A stretch of DNA of 63,730 nt, filler included, from Candidatus Woesearchaeota archaeon (GTDB lineage Archaea > Nanobdellota > Nanobdellia > Woesearchaeales > WJIZ01): assembly GCA_018221205.1 (NCBI GenBank). It is 8 parts of 8 records of this genome, joined end to end, with 100 filler letters (N's around TTAATTAATTAA, not from the genome) between each part and the next. Parts side by side here need not be neighbours in the genome. Positions count along the whole stretch, not along the records: positions 34,709 to 44,076 come from JAAOYF010000046.1; 7 more parts are not named here. One strand, given 5' to 3'. Made by a program: the position numbers and the translations under genes. Of the stretch, positions 9,341 to 44,233 are shown in pieces; the stretch's first letter is position 1, and the number at the start of each line of letters is the position of its first letter. Below the pieces are notes generated by a model. The model made no database searches, was not told the origin of the DNA, and saw only the letters and a program-made list of their open reading frames with translations.

Positions 9341-9428
9341 TACAGTATTCAAGTACATAGTAAATCAAGAACAACACCACGCAGAAGCTTAAGCGGATAC
9401 CCCGACTTTCAAGTCGGGGAGGATGTCA
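9341..9428 (+). mobile_element. tnpA: IS200/IS605-family element right end with tnpA 3' tail (copy 1)
   Basis: 9342-9392 reads TVFKYIVNQEQHHAEA* (Y1 transposase YIxNQ motif); hairpin CCCCGACTT-TC-AAGTCGGGG then AGGATGTCA; near-identical copy at 22190. Confidence 0.85.
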
Positions 9429-9943
9429 TATTCACCATCCCAAGCAATATCAGCATCCTCGATCCGACCATTCCACACTCCAGTGAATTTTCGACCATCT
9501 AGGCTAACACCTTTGAATGTATGTGCAAACTCATCAGGTAATTCCCACATCCTCTCACCTTTCTCAAAGAATAAACGACCAAAAGTAGCACAAACCAACT
9601 TATGAAATAAGGTACTGCCGCTATGATCATAAGTCGCCGTAAAATCCATCTGATTCGTAGAGACTTCACCCCCCACCCGATAAACTAACCCATTTTCGAA
9701 GTAATATCCACGTAAATCACCACTATCTAGGTCGGTAAACTGAGGAGGCGTTTGCGCGATGATGATGGGATACTGAGAGAAGGGATTCCCCTCGCTATAA
9801 TAACCCTTGAGTCCAGCAAATGCTGTATAGAATCCACTCTGATGCGCCAGCACTTCAAGCTTCCGAAGCATTCTGCTCTCTCGCTCCTGTTCTTTTTTTC
9901 TTCGAGCGTCAGGCAGTTCTGGGATATGATCAAAGATATCCAT
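9389..9943 (-). CDS. Hypothetical protein; C-terminus supplied by the IS200 end
   Basis: 184-aa ORF; last ~12 codons lie inside the repeated IS end. Confidence 0.65.
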   Translation of the reverse strand: MDIFDHIPELPDARRKKEQERESRMLRKLEVLAHQSGFYTAFAGLKGYYSEGNPFSQYPIIIAQTPPQFTDLDSGDLRGYYFENGLVYRVGGEVSTNQMDFTATYDHSGSTLFHKLVCATFGRLFFEKGERMWELPDEFAHTFKGVSLDGRKFTGVWNGRIEDADIAWDGEYDILPDLKVGVSA

Positions 9944-10022: not shown

Positions 10023-10343
10023 ATGGCAAATCCAACACCCCTATACAAGATGGAACAAGGAGGAAATGTAGCCCATTTCACTGTTCCAAGCGATCCAGAC
10101 CAGATGATGGCTTCAGTAGATGCTGTCGTCACTGCACTAAGGAGAGAACGAAAAGGATTAAGTAGCGTTTCAGTCGATCTGGGCAACATACCTGAACCCA
10201 ATAAACAGGCATGTGCAGAATTTTTAGTCGGCATACTAGGAGAAGAGGGTTTTAGTATAGTCGGTTATCGTAATTACCTACCCGACGCTGATCCTTCACC
10301 AGAGATTAGGCCCGGACCTTCATATAACCGTCACGCAAAATAG
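10023..10343 (+). CDS. Hypothetical protein
   Basis: 106-aa ORF with ATG start and AT-rich upstream region. Confidence 0.6.
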   Translation: MANPTPLYKMEQGGNVAHFTVPSDPDQMMASVDAVVTALRRERKGLSSVSVDLGNIPEPNKQACAEFLVGILGEEGFSIVGYRNYLPDADPSPEIRPGPSYNRHAK

Positions 10344-10813: not shown

Positions 10814-11215
10814 TTATTTTTTCTTAAATTCTTTGATTACTATGTCTCCATCTTCAAAAACTCGGAACAAAAACACCTTTTCGAGCTCTTTTCCATGGAA
10901 AACGCTTGAAAACCCCATCCTGACATCAACAAAGTAGCCCTGATCCTTCTCAATACAGAAGAAATGTACCTTAAACTTCTTGTTTCGAAGCAATTCCTGC
11001 TGTTTTAAGGTCAAAAAATCAAGCGGAATCTGGTCCAAAACATCAATATGGGGGTTGATTTTAATGGCGATTATTCCATGCTCTCGGCAGTATTTCTTGA
11101 AGATCATCTCTGCATATATACTCCGATGTTTCGACGACACAAGGCTATATCCATATTCACTTATCCATTGCCGATACAACGGCTCATAACGTGATTTGAC
11201 TACTCTGGTATGCAT
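10814..11215 (-). CDS. Hypothetical protein, degenerate PD-(D/E)XK-fold-like
   Basis: AEMIFKKYC...VHFFCIEK...YFVDVR resembles E...PD...EVK with substituted catalytic residues. Confidence 0.5.
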   Translation of the reverse strand: MHTRVVKSRYEPLYRQWISEYGYSLVSSKHRSIYAEMIFKKYCREHGIIAIKINPHIDVLDQIPLDFLTLKQQELLRNKKFKVHFFCIEKDQGYFVDVRMGFSSVFHGKELEKVFLFRVFEDGDIVIKEFKKK

Positions 11216-11318
11216 ACCAAAGAATATAGTTTATTGATATTAATACTTAATGGTGATACAATATATACTTTTAAAAATAGCTAATGTAATATCGATGTTA
11301 AAATATCTATATAAATAA

Positions 11319-22189: not shown

Positions 22190-22268
22190 CAAGTACATAG
22201 TAAATCAAGAACAACACCACGCAGAAGCTTAAGCGGATACCCCGACTTTCAAGTCGGGGAGGAGGTCA
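22190..22268 (+). mobile_element. IS200/IS605-family element right end (copy 2)
   Basis: Identical to 9350-9428 except GGAGGTCA vs GGATGTCA; flanks diverge immediately after TCA. Confidence 0.85.
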
Positions 22269-22336
22269 TTTTAGAATTTAGAGTTTATAAGTCTTTTTTA
22301 TGTGCTATCTTCTACTTTTCAATCATGCTTTAATAT

Positions 22337-34608: not shown

Positions 34609-34716
34609 NNNNNNNNNNNNNNNNNNNNNNNNNNNNNNNNNNNNNNNNNNNNTTAATTAATTAANNNNNNNNNNNNNNNNNNNNNNNNNNNNNNNNNNNN
34701 NNNNNNNNTAGGGACG

Positions 34717-35148
34717 ATGTTTGATATGAAGATCGAAGGCATCGGAGCTGTTTTGCAGGAGCTTGAGGCCATGAAAGTACAGGAAGAAAGGCAGACAAGA
34801 TTACTCGGGCAACTTACTCCTATTACTGAGACTATTTTTCAGAGAGGTTCTCAAAATCGAAATGCACTCAGCGAGCTTCTTGGAAAGTTGCAAGGCCTTA
34901 TGAACGCAATGGATAGATTGAAGTCCGAATCTGAGGATTTGAAAAGCAAACTCAAGAAGCATGCAGGGACAAATGAATGGATGCAGTCTTCAGCAGGAAA
35001 ATTGGTTGCACTTCTGAGATCTGAAAGGAGAAAAATCAGTTCCATCAGGGCAAAAATCACTGCTGTTGAAAAATCAAGTGAAAAAGAAGGGGAAGCTGTG
35101 CGCGGTCAAATAATCCAGCTGCAGCAACGCCCGTCTAAAGTCGCTTAG
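34717..35148 (+). CDS. Coiled-coil hypothetical protein (possibly 5' truncated)
   Basis: Helical heptad-rich ORF at contig start. Confidence 0.6.
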   Translation: MFDMKIEGIGAVLQELEAMKVQEERQTRLLGQLTPITETIFQRGSQNRNALSELLGKLQGLMNAMDRLKSESEDLKSKLKKHAGTNEWMQSSAGKLVALLRSERRKISSIRAKITAVEKSSEKEGEAVRGQIIQLQQRPSKVA

Positions 35149-35588
35149 ATCCGTAATCTTCTGTTCTTTGGCACGTAATTCAACAGCTTCTTATCGACTG
35201 CCTTGCCGCAGCCGAGGAAATCATCTTTGTTCTTGATGAGATAATAGCCTTTTTCCTCGATCTCTTTCGAAAGGTCGATGCCCCTAAGCCAATCCAAGGC
35301 ATCTTCATCGTCTAATTTGAGGATGTTTTCAGAACAATCAGGACCGATCAACTGTGAGCCTTCGATGCTCAACCGTATCTCGTTGGCGTGCAGCTCTCCG
35401 AAATACATGCCGATATTGTTGACTCTCAATTTCGAGGTGTCGATATTCCTGAAATCTTTGTTCACTAAGAAGATCCGATTCTTGTTATTCATCAAGAAGG
35501 CATAGTCGAGCTTCTTCTTGTAGCCGAACCTTTCGAGCAGTGAGATGGTCTTCTTCATCTCTCTGCTGTTGAGAATCTTATATTCCAT
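35145..35588 (-). CDS. NIP7/RsmF C-terminal-like PUA-related RNA-binding protein
   Basis: GMYFG...IRLSIEGSQLIG...WLRG...LGCGK...NYVPK. Confidence 0.8.
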   Translation of the reverse strand: MEYKILNSREMKKTISLLERFGYKKKLDYAFLMNNKNRIFLVNKDFRNIDTSKLRVNNIGMYFGELHANEIRLSIEGSQLIGPDCSENILKLDDEDALDWLRGIDLSKEIEEKGYYLIKNKDDFLGCGKAVDKKLLNYVPKNRRLRI

Positions 35589-37342
35589 CAGACGCCCCAA
35601 ACAACGTTATCCTGGCGCTTTATCTCAGCTATCTCCTTCAAGACCATCTTTTGGTCTTCTGAAAGATGGGATTTCAGCTTCTTGAACTTCTTGAAATCAG
35701 CTTCTGGCAGGTCGGAATAGAGTATGTCTTCTTCATTGATCTGCCTTCCTACTGTAAGATTTGGCAAGGAAATGGCGACTTGTTTCCCTTTCTCTGCCTT
35801 GTCGATGGATTTTTTATCTGCCTGCATGCCTTTTACAGAGGTCAGTTTCTTTCCTTTTCGATTCATTATGGGGGCATTTGCTGTCACGGTTCCGGCAATC
35901 ACTTCGACGCCGACGACAGCAGGATTACTCTGCCTGAAAATATATCCTTTCATGATATGGACTTTACATGGCTGCACTAAGGTATCTAATTCAGAAGCCT
36001 GCTGTTCTGCCTTCTGCTCTTCGACCCATTTCTTGAACTTGTCGATGATCTCATAGATGATCTGAGAGGAGATTATCTTCACGTTGGCATCACATATACC
36101 TGAGATATCTTCGACATTAAAGCCGAGAACAACACACGTAAAGGGATCCACTTCTTTATTTGCGGACGCATCTGCAATATCTTTCTTTGTTATATTGCCG
36201 ATTGTCGCTTTCTTTATCTCGATCTTTTCTTCTTTCAACAATTTAAGGAGGGCTTCTAATGATCCTAATGAGTCAGCTTTCACGACTATCCCTGTTTTAT
36301 CAGTTTCAATGACAACTTCTTCAACCTGGCTCTGGACATCTTCTTTTGCTTTCTCGATATCAGTCGCCTGTATGATTGGCATGCCTGCTACGACATCCTG
36401 TACGTCAGGAGCTGCAATCTTCACGCCTTTGGCAGCAGCCACTTCTTTCACAGAAGTGAATTTTGATTTCTTGTCCCGCATCTCAGCTAGGGGTGCAGGT
36501 TCGAACAATGCTTTCACTCTCGTAACAATTGGTTCATGCAGACCGCCAATCACAATAGTATCATTCACCCTCAATGTCCCGTCATAGAGGATCGCGTCGA
36601 TACTCTTCCCGATCCCTTTATCTTCTTTCACCTCTAGGATGATCCCTTTTGCTGGACCATCAACATCACATTCAAGACATTTCTCCAGGAATTTTTGTGC
36701 CAGGCCTGATAAGACCATGAGCAATTCTGGAATGCCTTCACCAGTCTCTGCAGAAGTGGGGACAATAGCTATCTGTTTTGTATAATCTTCTACTCGGTCG
36801 AACCTATCAGCTTGCAAGCCGTATTCTGCGAGCTTGCCAACAATCTCATAGAGTTTTTTCTCTATCTGCTCTATTGTCTGAGGAGATTGTGTGTTAATAT
36901 TGTTGAGTAATGCCCCTTCCTGTTTTTTCCATCCTGCCAATAAGTCAATCTTATTTGCGGCGATGATGAATGGAGTCTTGTACTGCTTGAGAATCTCTAT
37001 CGATTCAATGGTCTGGGGCATGAGACCTTCTCTTATATCAATCACGAGAATGGCGATATCAGCCAAGTTGCCTCCACGTTTTCTTAAGTTGGTGAACGCG
37101 GCATGGCCGGGAGTGTCTATAAATAATAGGCCAGGGATAGTAAAGTTGAGTTTCATCGCATCAAGAAGGGGGCCGCAAATCTTTTTGATGACTTCCAAAG
37201 GGATGATAGAGGCGCCGATCGCTTGGGTAATGGCACCTGCCTCGGTCTTGACAATAGCGCTGCCCCTAATTCTGTCTAGGATAGATGATTTTCCATGGTC
37301 TACATGACCTACTACTGTGCATATCGGACATCGAATTGTCAT
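35588..37342 (-). CDS. infB: Translation initiation factor aIF5B (IF-2)
   Basis: GHVDHGKS, AITQAIGA, DTPGH, NKID, DSLGSLEAL, FRQSNPAVVGV. Confidence 0.97.
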   Translation of the reverse strand: MTIRCPICTVVGHVDHGKSSILDRIRGSAIVKTEAGAITQAIGASIIPLEVIKKICGPLLDAMKLNFTIPGLLFIDTPGHAAFTNLRKRGGNLADIAILVIDIREGLMPQTIESIEILKQYKTPFIIAANKIDLLAGWKKQEGALLNNINTQSPQTIEQIEKKLYEIVGKLAEYGLQADRFDRVEDYTKQIAIVPTSAETGEGIPELLMVLSGLAQKFLEKCLECDVDGPAKGIILEVKEDKGIGKSIDAILYDGTLRVNDTIVIGGLHEPIVTRVKALFEPAPLAEMRDKKSKFTSVKEVAAAKGVKIAAPDVQDVVAGMPIIQATDIEKAKEDVQSQVEEVVIETDKTGIVVKADSLGSLEALLKLLKEEKIEIKKATIGNITKKDIADASANKEVDPFTCVVLGFNVEDISGICDANVKIISSQIIYEIIDKFKKWVEEQKAEQQASELDTLVQPCKVHIMKGYIFRQSNPAVVGVEVIAGTVTANAPIMNRKGKKLTSVKGMQADKKSIDKAEKGKQVAISLPNLTVGRQINEEDILYSDLPEADFKKFKKLKSHLSEDQKMVLKEIAEIKRQDNVVWGV

Positions 37343-37446
37343 ACGAATAAAGATTAGTGAAAGCTTTTTAAAGGTTGCTCAAGAGGATCCCATGGAAAGG
37401 TTTATAAATCAGTTCTCATTCTATAATAGTAACTGGAGGGGAGATT

Positions 37447-37833
37447 ATGAAAGATATACTCACATTATTTGTTTTGGGAATTGTCTTTTCGGCAGTCTCA
37501 GGAATAAGCCTCATCGATACTGCTTTTCCTATCGAGCCTGTTGTAAGAGGTGAGACTGCAGAGATCTATGTTTCGGCTTATACTGAGCCAGGAGATGACG
37601 AGTTCGAGGAGTCTAGAACAATCAAGAACCTTCGTATCGGCGCATATTGGCTTGATCTGGGTTTGATCGATATGACCTCAGAATCCAATCTGGAGGATGG
37701 GGGCGTGTGGACAACACTCTTGACATTTGACATCCCATTGAATGCTCATCGAGGATGGCATCCTATCTATGTGTGGATGTATGGGGATAATGGCGCTAGA
37801 GACGGAAGATATATCTTCACCTATGTAAGGTAA
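37447..37833 (+). CDS. Secreted Ig-like hypothetical protein
   Basis: Signal peptide; GGAGGGG RBS; beta-rich. Confidence 0.7.
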   Translation: MKDILTLFVLGIVFSAVSGISLIDTAFPIEPVVRGETAEIYVSAYTEPGDDEFEESRTIKNLRIGAYWLDLGLIDMTSESNLEDGGVWTTLLTFDIPLNAHRGWHPIYVWMYGDNGARDGRYIFTYVR

Positions 37834-37865
37834 ATTTATTAACCCATTCTTTTTCTTCTTTGTTT

Positions 37866-38879
37866 ATGATCACAGAAGGCAAAGCTACGTTAGCTGTAAA
37901 GACGCAGAAGATAGTCTCTAAAGAGATGAACGTCTTCTATAACCCAGTCATGGCTTTCAATCGGGATATCTCTATCTTATTGCTCAATGCTCTGAAGAAA
38001 AAAGATTTTCAGATCGGACTGCCTTTAGCGGGTTCGGGTATAAGAGGAATCAGATTCCTGAGAGAAGTCAAGGGAATAAAGAATATATGGTTCAATGATC
38101 ATGATAAGAAGGCAACCTTATCAATAAAGAAAAACTTAAAGTTGAATAACATCAAAGCTAAGTTCTCTATCAGTAATGAAGATGCAAATCTGTTCTTATT
38201 GAAATCAGCAGGTTTTGATTATATCGATATAGACCCTTTCGGCAGTCCGAATGCTTTTCTGGATTCATCTGTACGCAGGATCTCCCGGAATGGCATACTG
38301 GGAATAACTGCTACGGACACTTCTGCTCTATGCGGAACATATGTCAAAGCATGCAGGCGAAAATACTGGGCCAATCCTTTACGGAATGAGACGATGCATG
38401 AGATCGGTATTCGAATCCTTATTAGGAAGGTGCAGTTAATCGGGGCACAATATGAGAAGGCACTGATTCCGATCCTCTCTTATTCCAAAGACCATTATAT
38501 GAGGGTCTTTTTCTTATGTGAAAAAGGGAAGAGCAAGGTTGATCCTGTGCTGAAGCAGCATGATATGTTTGGAGAATCAGGACCATTATGGGAAGGGAAG
38601 CTGTGGGATGAAAAATTAGTCAGAAAGATGCATAAGATATCTCCGAGCAGATTTCTTAAGACGATCTTGGATGAGTCAAAGATCCATACTATCGGATTCT
38701 ATCATCTTCCTTCAGTCGCGAAAAGACATAAACTAGGCAGTCTTCCTCGACAGGATGCTGTCATGAAAGCGATAAAGAAGAAAGGCCATAAAGTGAGCGA
38801 GACCCATTTCATGGAGAATAGCATCAGGAGCACTGTTGCTGAAAAAGATCTAGTGAGAATCATCAAAGCTATCCGATAG
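37866..38879 (+). CDS. trm1: tRNA (guanine26-N2)-dimethyltransferase Trm1 (compact)
   Basis: VFYNPVMAFNRD, GSGIRGIR, DIDPFGSP, TATDT, HEIGIRIL. Confidence 0.95.
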   Translation: MITEGKATLAVKTQKIVSKEMNVFYNPVMAFNRDISILLLNALKKKDFQIGLPLAGSGIRGIRFLREVKGIKNIWFNDHDKKATLSIKKNLKLNNIKAKFSISNEDANLFLLKSAGFDYIDIDPFGSPNAFLDSSVRRISRNGILGITATDTSALCGTYVKACRRKYWANPLRNETMHEIGIRILIRKVQLIGAQYEKALIPILSYSKDHYMRVFFLCEKGKSKVDPVLKQHDMFGESGPLWEGKLWDEKLVRKMHKISPSRFLKTILDESKIHTIGFYHLPSVAKRHKLGSLPRQDAVMKAIKKKGHKVSETHFMENSIRSTVAEKDLVRIIKAIR

Positions 38880-39147
38880 CTCTTCGGACATCAGTTATCT
38901 CAGCAGAATTCACTTCTTCGAAAGTAGCTATCTTCTCTGCGACTGGATCTGGACTTCCTTTCGCTTCGTCCATGACGAATATGATGTTCAATGAATTCAG
39001 GCCGAACGCAACAGGCTGGATGTCTGTCTTGGTCTCTTTGCCTTCATTGAAAGCAGTTATCTCTTCCAATGCTTTCTTTTCTAATGCTTTCAAATCCACT
39101 TCTGGAGAAGTAGGCATGATCTTGACAGTGACAACTACGCTTGCCAT
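38869..39147 (-). CDS. ef1b: Translation elongation factor aEF-1beta
   Basis: KIMPTSPEVDL, PVAFGL; start ATG 39147. Confidence 0.95.
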   Translation of the reverse strand: MASVVVTVKIMPTSPEVDLKALEKKALEEITAFNEGKETKTDIQPVAFGLNSLNIIFVMDEAKGSPDPVAEKIATFEEVNSAEITDVRRAIG

Positions 39148-39148
39148 G

Positions 39149-39322
39149 TTAATTCGGACCCGTGAAGCCGCATTTTTCACATTTATACTTGATAGCCAAA
39201 GTCCTTGCCCGAGAAGATCGTATGATGTTCGTCTCGCTGCATTGAGGGCAGGCGAACTCTACACTACCTGCATCATTTGTTATCCTTTCCTTGGTTGATG
39301 AGCATACTTTTTGTTCTGTCAT
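39149..39322 (-). CDS. Small Zn-ribbon protein, DUF1610/HVO_2753 family (57 aa; not in ORF track)
   Basis: FACPQCSE...YKCEKCGFTGPN*; usual position upstream of aEF-1beta. Confidence 0.85.
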   Translation of the reverse strand: MTEQKVCSSTKERITNDAGSVEFACPQCSETNIIRSSRARTLAIKYKCEKCGFTGPN

Positions 39323-39407
39323 AGTGTTTCTGGATTAAGAAGTGGTTTAAAAAGCTTGCGCTTAACCTGCATTGTTAAATTAAAGGGAGCTATCTGGACC
39401 AAAAAAA

Positions 39408-39563
39408 TTATTTCTTCTTAATCTTCCTCACTCGAGGTTTATTCCAATAAGGACTTTTACATTTTGGACAAACAGCAGGTTCATCATCGCTCCCACGAGG
39501 AACCCATTTATGTTCACAACGTTCACATTGGAATCCTTCAACTTCTATTTTTACTCTTGCCAT
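39408..39563 (-). CDS. Small Zn-finger protein (51 aa; not in ORF track)
   Basis: CERCEHKWVPR...CPKCKSPYWNKPR; divergent from transposase. Confidence 0.8.
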   Translation of the reverse strand: MARVKIEVEGFQCERCEHKWVPRGSDDEPAVCPKCKSPYWNKPRVRKIKKK

Positions 39564-39707
39564 TAGTAGATCTATGATTAACTAGTATATAAATATTTAG
39601 TATATTCTCTACCATAGAAATGTTTAAATAGTTAATATACCTAACTAATATATTATTAGTAAATAATATTAAGGGACTCCGAAGAGTCCCAGATTCCACT
39701 CGCTAAA

Positions 39708-40631
39708 ATGAAATCTAAAGAAAGAACCCAACAGAAGTATAAAAAGGTAACTTGCCCTAAATGTAGCTCTAACAAGTTCAAAAAGGATGGGAAAAGAAAA
39801 ACCCAGAATAGAGGTAAAATTCAAAGACATAGGTGTAAAAATTGTAACTTTAGGTATGTAATTGATGATGGATTCTTTAGAATGAGAAATCATCCTAACA
39901 AAATAACTTGTGCTATCGACTTATTCTACAAAGGGGTTTCAACAAGAAAAGTTCAAGAACATTTTCAAACATTTTATCCTAAGAATTCTACGAATGTTTC
40001 TGTCTACAATTGGATAATCAAATATTCTGACATGAAAGGAGGTTTTACTGATAAATTGAAAGTAAAATCTGGGAAAGAGATACAGGTAGATGAAATGGAG
40101 TATCATCGAAGACAAGAACATAAGAAAAGAGGTGTAAGTAAGGATTGGTTTATTGATTCAATCGATGTTCACACTAGATTTATGGTAGGTTCAAAGTATT
40201 TCAAATCGAGGGGAAAAACCGAAATAAAAGAAGTTTTGGCAAAAGTCAAATATAAAACAGAGGGATATGTAACAACAGTCACAACTGACGGTTATACTGC
40301 TTATGAGAATGTTGTTAAAAAAACATGGGGCTACAATAATAAAAAGGGTAGATACAATATTTTTCACAAGAAAGTCATAGCTTCTAAGGGAGAAGGGTTT
40401 AATTTGTTTATTGAGAGACTTCACAATTCTATAAGGGAAAGAACAAAGACGTTTAGGGGATTTCATGGAAGTGTAGAATCAGCACGCTCAATTATGAAAG
40501 GTTACGAGATATTTTACAATTTCATAAGAAAACACCAAGCGATAAATTGTTGCCCCTACGAATTAGCCACTGATTTAATTCTGGAGAGCTCTAATAGGTG
40601 GTTAGAGTTGATAAAACTGAGTAAGGTTTAA
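39708..40631 (+). mobile_element. IS6-family DDE transposase with N-terminal Zn ribbon
   Basis: CPKC...CKNC, HTH (GVSTRKV...VYNWI), QVDE / TTDG / IERLH, YNFIRKH. Confidence 0.88.
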
Positions 40632-40754
40632 CATCGGGCTTAAGGGAAGTTCGGTTTTGAGGCAACCCACACCAAAAAATTTGGGAGAAAAACGAATTTT
40701 GCTTGGCAAAATAGCGAAGCGGTCGTTTTGAACCCTTTAAGCCCTTTTAAGTTC
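40626..40754 (-). repeat. attC-like site 1 (R'' core mutated)
   Basis: Plus strand TAACATC-GGGCTTAAGGG...CCCTTTAAGCCC-TTTTAAGTTC; same arms as sites 2 and 3. Confidence 0.75.
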
Positions 40755-40920
40755 TTTGACCATACGAAGTGTGGTCAAATTTCGTCCGAAAAGTAAAATT
40801 TGGGTTCTATAATTTCGATCGAAGGGAGACTAAATGTGCGTAGCACTAGGGGTCTGAGAGTTCAATCTCCTGAGCGAATGCGATACATAAGGAACAAGAA
40901 TTAAGGGATAATTCCTCCAT

Positions 40921-41670
40921 TCATTTATTAGCAATCTTCCAAAATGTATCAAAATATTTTTTAAAACTTTCAACAGCACCCTTACTTTTAATACTAAATG
41001 CAATAGGATCTTTCATCCACAAAATCAAGATTACTGTATCATTATAGAAAAAAATGTGCATGTTTGTCATGAGATATTTGGGCAAGTAACGAATAACAGC
41101 TAGTTTAAATGTTTCTGGTTCAATATTCCCTTTAGTATCAAAATTAGCAAGCATTTTCACTTTTATTTTTTTCTTTGCCCTTTTAGAATGAAATAATCTA
41201 AAGAAAGGCCTTGAACCAAGTACATCTTTTTCATACATTGCACCCATTACATGATAAGATTCATTTTGATTTAATTCATCTAACATACCAAGCAATAAAT
41301 TTTTTATTGCTTTAAAACCATTATAAGTAACTGATTCTGGCGTACTATCTGAAGGAATAAGTTTCTCAATCTCAGGAAGCGATTTTTCAATTTCCTTTCT
41401 CTGAAACTCTAGTTTTTTTGTTTTCTCATCAATATAATCTAGAATTGCTTTCGGTTTCATCGCTTTGAAGTATTTTACCTTTCCCTTAATGATATGACCA
41501 ACCAGTCCTTTTTGTTCTAATCTGTAAAGAATTTTGTATATTTTGGAATAGGAAACTTTTGATTTTGTGGAAAGAATGCCTGTTTTAGTGGAGCCCAGTT
41601 CTATTAAAGAGAGGTAAACTCTAGTTTCTGCTTCTGTTAATCCTATATTCTCAAGTAATTTTGGGTTCAT
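40921..41670 (-). CDS. TrmB-family transcriptional regulator (cassette gene)
   Basis: IGLTEAETRVYLSL...KIYKILYRLEQKGLV; C-terminal YFDTFW. Confidence 0.88.
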   Translation of the reverse strand: MNPKLLENIGLTEAETRVYLSLIELGSTKTGILSTKSKVSYSKIYKILYRLEQKGLVGHIIKGKVKYFKAMKPKAILDYIDEKTKKLEFQRKEIEKSLPEIEKLIPSDSTPESVTYNGFKAIKNLLLGMLDELNQNESYHVMGAMYEKDVLGSRPFFRLFHSKRAKKKIKVKMLANFDTKGNIEPETFKLAVIRYLPKYLMTNMHIFFYNDTVILILWMKDPIAFSIKSKGAVESFKKYFDTFWKIANK

Positions 41671-41771
41671 AGAGTATAAGAAGCAATATCTGTATAAAAA
41701 GCTTTCTATAGACCCCCAAAGGGGTACATAAATATTATAAATTGGATGGACACTACTTAAGAATTAGAATA

Positions 41772-42296
41772 ATGGAACAAGATAAGGTAGGTAGTAGAAT
41801 GCAATCTCCTAGAGAACTCCTTAAAAATTTGGACTTTTTATGTCAACAAGCAAATATACTTACTGGTGTGTACATCTCTGTAGCAAGACAATTAACAAAT
41901 CCACATGTAAGAAAACAACCCTATTTAGTGGATTTCGCTCAAATTCCTCTTGAAGTAATTACAGCTACAGGTCCTGATTCTATTCCTTATACTGAATATT
42001 TATTGGGAAGAAATGCTGAAAGAGAGAATGTATCAGATACACCTGAGATAAAAACTGAAACAATGCCATTTGAACCAACTTTTTTTGATTATATAGTTAG
42101 TCAATTTGTAATGGCAAATCGACTAGGTGCAAGCCAAATTGTTGACAATTATATGAAACCATTGCGAGTAGCGAGGGATCACTATATTGAATCTAGGGCT
42201 GGATGGGTACCATCTTCTAAAGTTGATACGGCTGAAGTAGTTGGTATAGGAGAATTATTTGGAGATGCAACATTAGTCTATAAGGGTATTGAATAG
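41772..42296 (+). CDS. Hypothetical protein (cassette gene, divergent from TrmB)
   Basis: ORF with upstream TATA-like sequence; start uncertain. Confidence 0.6.
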   Translation: MEQDKVGSRMQSPRELLKNLDFLCQQANILTGVYISVARQLTNPHVRKQPYLVDFAQIPLEVITATGPDSIPYTEYLLGRNAERENVSDTPEIKTETMPFEPTFFDYIVSQFVMANRLGASQIVDNYMKPLRVARDHYIESRAGWVPSSKVDTAEVVGIGELFGDATLVYKGIE

Positions 42297-42407
42297 TAGT
42301 TTAGGAATTATCCCATTAACAATAAATTTCTTTTACAAAGTAAAAGACTATATGTGCGTAGCACCTCAGACCCCTTTTTTGTTTTTTTAGAACCCAAATT
42401 TTATTGA

Positions 42408-42491
42408 ACTTAACATCGGGATTAAGAGAAGTTGGCGTAGCCAATTTGGGAAAATTCCTGCAAGGGATTTTCCGGATAATCGCTGTTATAT
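42408..42491 (-). repeat. attC-like site 2
   Basis: Minus strand ATATAAC-AGCGATTA...TAATCCCGAT-GTTAAGT (R''...R' GTTRRRY), 84 bp, imperfect hairpin with unpaired bases. Confidence 0.85.
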
Positions 42492-42569
42492 GACCCGAAC
42501 GGAACGAAGTGGAGTGAGAGTGCAACGTGGCAAGGGAGCAAAGCGACCGCAGAGTTTAATTTTGTGCCG

Positions 42570-43745
42570 TTAAACACTAACTTTAATGTATCTCTCATCA
42601 ATCCTAAAAGCGATAGCACCTAGAACAATTATCCCTCCCATTACAATAAAAGAAAGAATTAAGTTTTCATTCGCTATTTTTCCTAATACTAATCTCATTA
42701 TTGCTAAATAGAAGGATACAATCATTGAAATTACAGACAGGACTGTTGCTCTATTATGGCTCTCAATATGGTCATTTTGGTATTGTGAGAATAAGGGATC
42801 TCTAAGACTACTTATTCCTCTAAGTAACATATACCAAATAAATGACATTATTGGTCCTATAAGAAATGCCATAGCTAAGTACAATAATCCCGGAAAGATG
42901 GTTGTTAAGAAAATGGTTTTTTTCATTCCTATTTTCTCTTCAATTTTATAAGCATATTTCATTAATAATGCACCTAAAATTGTACCACCTGCCATGGCTA
43001 CTCCCCAGATAACATTTGGAACTCCTGCATCTAAGAAGTAAGGTTGGAATAAAAACATAATAACGTGAGTAAAAGGAACTGTGAATAAAGAAAGATAAAT
43101 TATTTTTCTTAATGATTTATTTTTTAGAATGTGGGCGGTAGAGTCTTTGAATAAAATTAATGGGCTTACTTCTCTGATTTCTTTTTCACTTTTTGGTTCT
43201 TTAACAAATAAGGATATAATGAATGAAATTATTGCTCCAAATGTGAAAAGCCATAATAATAAAACAAAAGTTTTTGGTTCGTGACTTCTTGCGATGTAAC
43301 CACCCACGATTACAGCAATAACACTTGCAACCAATGAATATGAATTGATAGAACCCCAAGTTTTACTCATTAATTTTTCTTTCTTTTCATATTTTAATGA
43401 GTCATAAACAAGTGCTTCAACTGCTCCAGAACCAAAAGCAATTCCTATTCCAAATATAATCTCAATAAAGATAAATTCAAGATATGAAAATGCAAAGATT
43501 GCCCAGATATTTCCAATAATGTAAAGTAAAATTAAGAATGATAATGATAATTTTCTTCCAATTTTATCTGCAATTATTCCAGTTGGGACTTCTGAGAATA
43601 AAACAGCAATGATTAAGATTGCTTCAAGAGAGACAACTTGAAAGGTATCTAAACCTCTTGAGAAATAAAATAGTGTTAAAATTGGTGAGAAGAAAAATAG
43701 CGATTTGAAAAAATATATCAGTTTAAGTTTAGTAATGTTGTTCAC
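42570..43745 (-). CDS. MFS transporter (cassette gene)
   Basis: EVPTGIIADKIGRK, GSGAVEALVYDSL, RATVLS; ~12 TM; GTG start at 43745. Confidence 0.92.
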   Translation of the reverse strand: MNNITKLKLIYFFKSLFFFSPILTLFYFSRGLDTFQVVSLEAILIIAVLFSEVPTGIIADKIGRKLSLSFLILLYIIGNIWAIFAFSYLEFIFIEIIFGIGIAFGSGAVEALVYDSLKYEKKEKLMSKTWGSINSYSLVASVIAVIVGGYIARSHEPKTFVLLLWLFTFGAIISFIISLFVKEPKSEKEIREVSPLILFKDSTAHILKNKSLRKIIYLSLFTVPFTHVIMFLFQPYFLDAGVPNVIWGVAMAGGTILGALLMKYAYKIEEKIGMKKTIFLTTIFPGLLYLAMAFLIGPIMSFIWYMLLRGISSLRDPLFSQYQNDHIESHNRATVLSVISMIVSFYLAIMRLVLGKIANENLILSFIVMGGIIVLGAIAFRIDERYIKVSV

Positions 43746-43840
43746 ATATCCAGGAGGGATAATTGTATTTATATTAGTTTCTAAAAAAGGATTGATGAGA
43801 TTTAGAGTTACATAATTAAGTAGGCACAAAATTAAATTTC

Positions 43841-43982
43841 ATATAACATCGCGATTAAGGGAAGTTCAGTTTTCCTCGTGAGCGTAGCGAACAGAGCTGA
43901 AAACTGAATTTGGGAAATATTCGGGAAATCGCTTGGCGATTTAGCGTAAGCGACCGAATTTTCCGTTAAATGCCTGTTATAT
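43841..43982 (-). repeat. attC-like site 3
   Basis: Minus strand ATATAAC-AGGCATTTAA...TTAATCGCGAT-GTTATAT, 142 bp, branched variable centre. Confidence 0.82.
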
Positions 43983-44233
43983 TCTTTGACCCTACAACGT
44001 GGGGTCAAACCGCGTCCGCGGAGTTTTTGAATTGCTAATAAATCGAGGCGAAGCCGAGTCTATATGTGCGTAGCACNNNNNNNNNNNNNNNNNNNNNNNN
44101 NNNNNNNNNNNNNNNNNNNNTTAATTAATTAANNNNNNNNNNNNNNNNNNNNNNNNNNNNNNNNNNNNNNNNNNNNAAAGCTGCATATTCCATAAAAACA
44201 CTTAAATAGGAGTTCGTATATAAAATTGTTGAT

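Follow-up and report, generated by a model that had tools for sequence, protein, structure and literature searches.

The window, by which we mean the whole 63,730-nt stretch of DNA analysed here, consists of contigs of a Candidatus Woesearchaeota archaeon joined by N-linkers. Contig C28 (positions 34709-44076) encodes archaeal-type housekeeping genes, including a match to Trm1, and carries, about 240 nt from its end, a cassette with the gene of an MFS transporter whose named homologues come chiefly from Woesearchaeota and Nanoarchaeota assemblies, which points to a DPANN host. The cargo is bounded, as in integron cassettes, by hairpins whose cores read AAC...GTT and whose inner boxes pair. These hairpins are 78-136 nt in size, with a single contiguous dif-like arm each, and gave z values of -3.2 and -4.5 in a fold test (Table 1). 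The first-pass annotation had described a cassette between attC-like sites, and this description holds: the flanking hairpins are real, the cores match and the unit is mobile, being found between different sites in the window, in locus L015 and in locus L030. Double-stranded dif-like flanking sites were not found at the MFS cassette.

An ORF at 39708-40631 resembles transposases of the IS6 family, scores below the Pfam and NCBIfam cut-offs, and ends in a stop codon that overlaps the TAAC of site A. Two distant relatives of it (about 30%), at L263 and L266, are convergent with the 3' end of an array-type recombinase gene, which suggests that IS6-like elements frequent the arrays. A mini-hairpin module, CT(A/T)ATGTGCGTAGCAC, recurs in cassette end frames at 40830-40848, 42346-42364, 44057-44076 and G000:C53:35-55. 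Exact copies in the genome number four, all in the MFS array or at the start of contig C53, and that start resembles a cassette end.

Table 1. Features of the MFS cassette and its array on contig C28, with positions numbered along the window.
Feature	Position	Strand	Remarks
MFS cassette, core to core, 1,363 nt	42485..43847	(-)	Two 9-nt cores agree 9/9; between different sites in L015
MFS transporter gene, 391 aa, GTG start	42570..43745	(-)	PF07690, E 2.7e-21; homologues have ATG here
BRE/TATA-like promoter segment AGAAACTAATATAAAT	43767..43782	(-)	Putative function; 16-mer identical upstream of L031, near-identical in L014
GC-rich insert splitting the 11-bp outer arm (TTA-N5 ... AGT), tail end	42494..42552	(+)	Family-wide
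Site A, degenerate; left arm replaced by end of IS6-like transposase ORF	40629..40749	(+)	
Site B, attC-like hairpin, dif-like left arm ATT-N5-TAA	42403..42488 (hairpin 42411-42488)	(+)	
Site C, attC-like hairpin, dif-like left arm	43836..43979 (hairpin 43844-43979)	(+)	
Neighbouring cassette: TrmB-domain gene and 184-aa ORF	40746..42414	(.)	Own end blocks
End blocks of neighbouring TrmB cassette	40794-809/42388-403, 40848-58/42365-75, 40905-16/42303-14		
Further cassette, tail end only, cut by contig end	43976..44076	(+)	Same core-insert-AGT layout
Block 1, leader arm	43823..43836	(+)	Starts at fixed position 12 from core
Block 1, tail arm	42555..42568	(+)	Directly past stop codon; invariant AGT precedes
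Block 2, leader arm	43788..43800	(+)	Upstream of promoter
Block 2, tail arm	42593..42605	(+)	Codons R381-R385; gene's only AGG codon
Block 3, leader arm	43753..43766	(+)	Between TATA box and start codon
Block 3, tail arm	42625..42638	(+)	Codons G370-V374; gene's only GGG; paired change vs L015
Block 4, N-terminal arm	43692..43703	(+)	Codons S15-F18; only TCG among 33 Ser codons
Block 4, C-terminal arm	42671..42682	(+)	Codons G355-N359; only GCG among 25 Ala codons

The two ends of the MFS cassette are complementary in separate blocks. Three of these, together with a partial TAACT.TAA match, are present where the first-pass annotation had placed them: TTTAATTTTGTGCC (block 1, 14/14), TCTCATCAATCCT (block 2, 13/13) and ACAATTATCCCTCC (block 3, 14/14). 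The colinearity of 84 nt with 84 nt proposed at the same time is true in part: the register is exact for blocks 1 and 3 and off by 2 for block 2, and the ungapped identity is only 40/84. Block 4, TCGCTATTTTTC, had been overlooked and consists of coding sequence on both arms. The local alignment of the two ends beats 200/200 shuffles and outscores 86/86 pairings with the ends of other cassettes; a survey of 918 ORFs in the genome turned up 14 with one block of at least 11 nt and 1 with two. For the circle junction the predicted fold, at -83 and -79 kcal/mol on the two strands, has all four blocks paired beneath the site hairpin, in agreement with the earlier idea that the ends zip into a stem which extends the site hairpin into coding sequence. 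When the fold is predicted in the context of the array, the blocks pair and both site hairpins fold separately, an arrangement that would bring the two sites together.

L015 is a copy of the MFS cassette from another genome, with different sites and neighbours. The proteins share 92% identity, 152 of the 1,173 coding bases differ and third positions differ at 111 of 391 codons (28%). Blocks 1-3 and 10 nt of block 4 are retained in L015; the leader spacers have strongly diverged from those in the window and blocks 1 and 2 are unchanged. In block 3 a synonymous GGG/GGA difference in the gene is mirrored in the leader, so both arms have changed, and this is the one compensatory pair directly observed. 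A further copy, in sequencing run X4, is a single 1,378-nt contig (record 21) with 134 differences, which covers both arms; small-share runs served solely to provide this contig, and no RNA run was among those listed. Run X1 is a possible source sample and is not counted as independent. Among the contigs of four runs there was no excised circle or empty site of the MFS cassette. Candidate joints in the runs are short-sided and fit repeats, and none is counted as a circle.

Is such end complementarity general? Of 301 genomes of the order, 44 contain the site motif, a tally that includes the unpublished genome G583, used nowhere else; of 401 genomes of the class, 51 contain a stricter form. A first set of 40 fetched regions and 11 loci gave 44 inter-site units, of which 28 were kept (two of them the MFS cassette); the other 16 had mismatched cores, contained N or were shorter than 400 nt. 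A first block private to the unit was found in 22/28 as against 3/748 cross-pairs and a further block in 19/28 as against 9/748; before filtering, 31 of the 44 units exceeded the 95th percentile of cross-pairs. From another 60 regions, 38 units were cut and 25 kept, with a first block in 19/25 (4/600 cross-pairs) and a further block in 16/25 (15/600), the unfiltered values being 19/36 and 17/36. Taken together, 41 of 53 well-formed units possess a private first block compared with 7 of 1,348 cross-pairs, in genomes that are kin, so p-values overstate the case. Other cassettes thus behave as the first-pass proposal required. The terminal repeats are private to each unit, not shared across copies as in MITEs or IS elements.

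The layout is constant. One end reads GTTA-N5-AAT-block 1 and the other GTTA-N5-(GC-rich insert)-AGT-block 1, and AGT stands opposite AAT in 39 of 40 first blocks, which leaves an invariant G.T on one strand. The 5-nt extension of a unit's own cores agrees 5/5 in 25/44 units and in 78/1,892 cross-pairs. Predicted end-to-end binding is -33 kcal/mol within units, -10 for cross-pairs, and stronger with the unit's own end in 28/28. Blocks are 11-18 nt in length, sharply bounded and nearly perfect. Their G+C content is 40% against 26%, and at third codon positions 27% (43/161) against 17% (798/4,784) elsewhere in the same genes. G.T wobbles are near absent within blocks (12 internal mismatches in the pooled blocks; strand split 6 to 3, p 0.5), and strand fold energies divide the units 17 to 11 without singling out a strand. 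Further blocks touch an ORF in 30 of 58 cases, 14 of them on both arms, counts that are approximate since ORF calls at cassette ends are mechanical. Cargo occurs either way round (26 against 17), which fits a role of the blocks at the level of DNA.

The L213 cassette is comparable to the MFS cassette in that a 16-nt patch between TATA box and ATG pairs with its own coding tail. Private blocks are likewise borne by the neighbouring cassette in the window and by one on contig C45. The latter (G000:C45:27126-27587, reverse) is small, carries one short ORF of membrane-protein-like sequence with TTGAGAAAAAGCCC as its private first block, and is flanked by a weak site and a truncated site. At L235 shortened sites (AAC ACCT GTTG; 10290-10340 and 11040-11312), in at least three repeats and with almost no inner hairpin, bound a toxin-antitoxin cassette whose ends retain a 16-nt block. 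Viral contigs contained no relative of the MFS gene; 29 hits to the site motif in such contigs all fell short of a complete site and were put down to chance.

Searches by PF00589 and tblastn found no tyrosine recombinase in the genome with the MFS cassette, which is 94.8% complete, so the enzyme that moves the cassette would have to act in trans. Relatives have 12 recombinases, found with L142, at distances of 0.9-8 kb from the site motif, on the same contig and strand, and the site motif is present in 21 of 54 genomes with an array-type recombinase and in 30 of 347 without one. The array-linked enzymes tested have 258-278 aa. XerA_Arch (NF040815) is their best model, with scores of 172-217 that fall below its cut-off of 220, whereas housekeeping-like copies alongside score 257-270. 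Against the IntI model TIGR02249 they are also below the cut-off and match in two pieces around the insertion specific to IntI (the I2 helix region), which they lack. Searches of plasmids and phages with the Xer-like enzymes returned distant hits only.

A dif-like site, ATT-N5-TAA-N6-TTA-N5-AGT, is located 105-157 nt upstream of 19/27 recombinases of relatives and downstream of 0/29. This predicted enzyme-proximal attachment site has the 11+6+11 geometry of dif, as given in bp in the available part of PMC2958812. The contig in the window ends before such a region. The distinct single-stranded DNA mobility system once suggested for this locus is thus well supported, as a Xer-type cassette system, by the array-linked recombinases and dif-like site of relatives. 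By analogy with attI, the array in the window would read on the minus strand, with the MFS gene forward and the invariant G.T on what corresponds to the integron 'bottom' strand. In L142 and L246-L275 the enzyme-proximal site (70 nt) continues into an inverted copy of its right arm, so that this site too can form a hairpin; the dif-like site is also followed by a AAAGCGAAAT-like motif, which is conserved.

The MFS unit is a mobile cassette of an archaeal integron-like system, and we consider it probable that its blocks are kept by selection, as the single-stranded cassette would need its own ends paired for recombination by a XerA-like tyrosine recombinase without the integron insertion. When the ends pair, block 1 would restore the 11-bp dif-like arm that the hairpin insert splits, and blocks 2-4 would be private clamps that hold the two sites of the cassette together for excision and stabilise the excised circle. 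Integron excision needs simultaneous folding of both sites and can drop with cassette length, according to the accessible sections of PMC5371416; clamps would ease such folding. The excised circle would keep a long stem similar to a double strand, usable by an enzyme without the I2 helix in the manner of XerCD on the stem of CTX-phi (PMC4792948). Cargo that reaches the cassette end, as the MFS gene does, may then have its clamps rebuilt mismatch by mismatch, sparing the protein and the TATA box, so that pairing slowly re-tunes codons and promoters. Strand exchange between the arms may supply some of the changes.

The strongest competitor, which we regard as unlikely, makes the blocks mainly a by-product, with the arms of the folded cassette copying or repairing one another through template switching or heteroduplex repair and selection merely filtering the outcome. 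The sharp borders and near perfection of the blocks would suit it, as would a 2.4-kb radical-SAM/DUF5680 cargo that lies opposite ways in the same core, insert and first block at L104:1640-4840 and L218:3550-6690, where block 3 differs between the copies and matches within each. Because this cargo occurs both ways inside an identical frame, the arms do at times exchange strands. Between L102 and L235 the orientation of a toxin-antitoxin cargo likewise differs, but in different frames. Template switching homogenises the arms of inverted repeats and inverts their spacers, which are 2-5 bp in the cases described in the available text of PMC8604942. Stepwise point mutation would hardly be expected to leave so few wobbles, which hints at copying. 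On the other hand, block 1 has a fixed position and invariant borders, the G+C enrichment is not predicted by unbiased copying, unmatched sequence persists between blocks where there is neither a gene nor a promoter, and in the single case checked, an SDR cargo with ASGST family-wide, the protein was not overwritten. From the enrichment and the fixed positions, selection is the better candidate for what maintains the blocks, and copying or repair may be where they come from; by-product copying can coexist with selected end-pairing as a source of mutation. The separate notion that N-terminal motifs are copied into C-termini failed on the same SDR cargo and was rejected.

Was the leader made from the tail of its own gene? 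The first-pass annotation had offered templating of the leader, as an inverted copy of the tail, alongside selection to pair with it, and had seen a possible footprint of cassette genesis. We compared MFS loci at 57-86% identity with no site within the fetched flanks (site-less homologues); the DNA comparison covered homologues other than the closest MFS proteins, P0002-P0004. The site-less homologues are without the blocks, the match to their own tail amounting to 9 nt in L014 and 8 nt in L115. Site-less L031 has the promoter segment of the window unaltered and site-less L014 has TTTTTAGAAAAGAATATAAATACAATTAT, which takes in the block 3 seed ACAATTAT. The tail residues MGxII, RIDE and KIAN are conserved clade-wide. 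Both substrates were therefore present beforehand, and each was fitted to the other.

The codons tell a similar story. With the commonest codons in 16 distinct site-less homologue rows as reference, block 4 would contain four mismatches, and two are resolved on each arm, all by synonymous changes: TCA to TCG and TTA to CTA on the N-terminal arm, ATT to ATA and GCA to GCG on the C-terminal arm. Derived synonymous changes are also found on the tail side of block 2, where the AGG codon occurs in 0/16 rows; every other derived codon is present in 1-3/16. The polarity of these changes is uncertain, since the homologues without sites could themselves be cassettes in decay, as the residual tail matches of L014 and L115 would allow. 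In a quick, unfinished MFS tree, with weak support around the cassette clade, two site-less rows group inside the cassette copies, and we therefore claim no order of events. Loci L014, L021, L024, L025, L028 and L029, which carry the MFS clade, are titled 'uncultured Methanosarcinales archaeon'. Since L028 matches L005, whose genome is assigned to the same order as the window, the titles may be mislabels.

It is very improbable, on this evidence, that the leader was made once at the birth of the cassette as a fold-back inverted copy of the tail that later decayed around the promoter. Such an origin would account for the equal lengths of 84 nt, the exact register of blocks 1 and 3 and the partial matches between blocks 1 and 2, and a 13-nt stretch of the L015 leader does resemble the tail of site-less L014, with 2 informative nt only. 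However, the promoter and the block 3 seed occur in site-less homologues, block 1 obeys a family-wide frame common to different cargos, other cassettes are not colinear copies, and block 4 is coding on both sides and changed on both, which argues against a single one-way fold-back copy. For blocks 3 and 4 the birth-copy reading is largely refuted. The templated copy is accordingly not upheld and the footprint of genesis is weak, as one-way copying cannot give the changes in block 4 and the block 2 tail; the alternative of selection to pair fits the evidence, other cassettes being likewise paired and site-less homologues without the blocks. The MFS case shows cassette maturation and does not clearly show genesis. 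The leader as the remnant of an inverted gene copy was also considered and dropped, since the promoter is shared with site-less homologues.

Still less credible is pairing that acts in RNA, for instance to close or regulate the transcript. Blocks 3 and 4 do lie on either side of the start codon, with partners in the 3' part of the coding sequence, but blocks 1 and 2 lie upstream of the TATA-like box and would be absent from a transcript made there, the layout is tied to the recombination core and not to gene direction, and the cassette has no match in Rfam at E 0.1. A chimera of assembly or amplification, or chance, can be dismissed: the contig end is close to the MFS unit and the metagenome is shallow (depth 3-7 in run X1), but the arms are imperfect, dozens of cassettes have the same design, and the assembly fold-back that the first-pass annotation had named as a refutation is excluded by diverged, independent copies, L015 in another genome, which keeps the blocks between different sites, and record 21 of X4, which spans both arms.

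How does the selected, self-pairing cassette compare with known systems? Cargo arrays separated by hairpins, AAC...GTT cores and agreement of a unit's own cores are held in common with integron cassettes and their attC sites, archaeal integrons and CALINs, and so are the enzyme-proximal att site of relatives and the existence of a cluster, that of the MFS gene, without an integrase (Ghaly et al. 2022, PMC9668308). Unlike integrons, the archaeal family has private complementarity far past the core, an outer arm split by the hairpin insert, cargo in both orientations and a recombinase without the IntI insertion. A separate block of at least 11 nt was found in 0/11 classical cassettes, where the core match alone spans 4-11 nt, in a small control of eight Vibrio superintegron cassettes, two from class 1 and one environmental, the long Vibrio sites being located by their repeats. 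Some archaeal sites also exceed the attC range of 57-141 bp quoted in the accessible sections of PMC5371416, reaching 230 nt in L015. The archaeal unit works like an integron cassette but does not qualify as one by its integrase.

An 11+6+11 site upstream of the recombinase and a best match to XerA_Arch recall Xer/dif and archaeal XerA (PMC2958812, in part). In contrast to Xer/dif and the pdif modules of Acinetobacter there is a second, array-linked clade of enzyme and the partner sites are hairpins instead of double-stranded dif; in contrast to dif of Thermococcales the dif-like site adjoins the recombinase gene. CTX-phi and other Xer-integrating elements provide a parallel in that a single strand, once folded, would pass for a double-stranded Xer site with an enzyme that has no I2 helix (PMC4792948, in the text available). 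The archaeal unit differs from CTX-phi in not being a phage, in having its own recombinase clade and tandem arrays, and in a stem extended by private clamps into cargo. Near-perfect inverted arms and an inverted intervening sequence are also features of template-switched quasi-palindromes (PMC8604942, as available), whereas in archaeal cassettes a distance of 0.3-3 kb separates the arms within the array, and their positions are fixed and linked to a recombination site.

Extended end complementarity of this kind is undescribed in the literature consulted, which was mostly open-access; the supplements of PMC9668308 list archaeal attC sites that could include the family. The word 'inverted' is absent from the accessible main text of PMC9668308, as is 'cassette' from that of PMC8371274, a review of archaeal tyrosine recombinases. 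The available part of PMC4792948 (2016) relates that Xer-integrating elements have been proposed as ancestors of cassettes, that cassette origin is without a reliable model and that the rise of single-strand integron recombination from Xer enzymes is open. In the archaeal family a recombinase that lacks the integron insertion and a dif-like attachment site come together with cassette ends that record adaptation readably. The MFS cassette is a useful test case in which site-less relatives reveal the changed bases, each revertible without change to the protein, and an unusual one in that codon choice at both ends of a gene is apparently shaped by DNA pairing 1.1 kb apart. More tentatively, these arrays could be Xer-type proto-integrons, in which private clamps fold the single-stranded cassette and self-assemble the synapse, making excision possible for a recombinase that has no I2 helix, and arm exchange flips cargo and rewrites codons and promoters until whatever gene was captured fits. 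We see this wider proposal as possible but doubtful; if true, it would make visible a route by which ordinary genes become cassettes.

Elsewhere in the window an 83-nt repeat with a GC-rich hairpin, 98% identical between its copies at 9350-9432 and 22190-22272, stands at the starts of two contigs; we take it to be, possibly, an IS200/IS605-type end.
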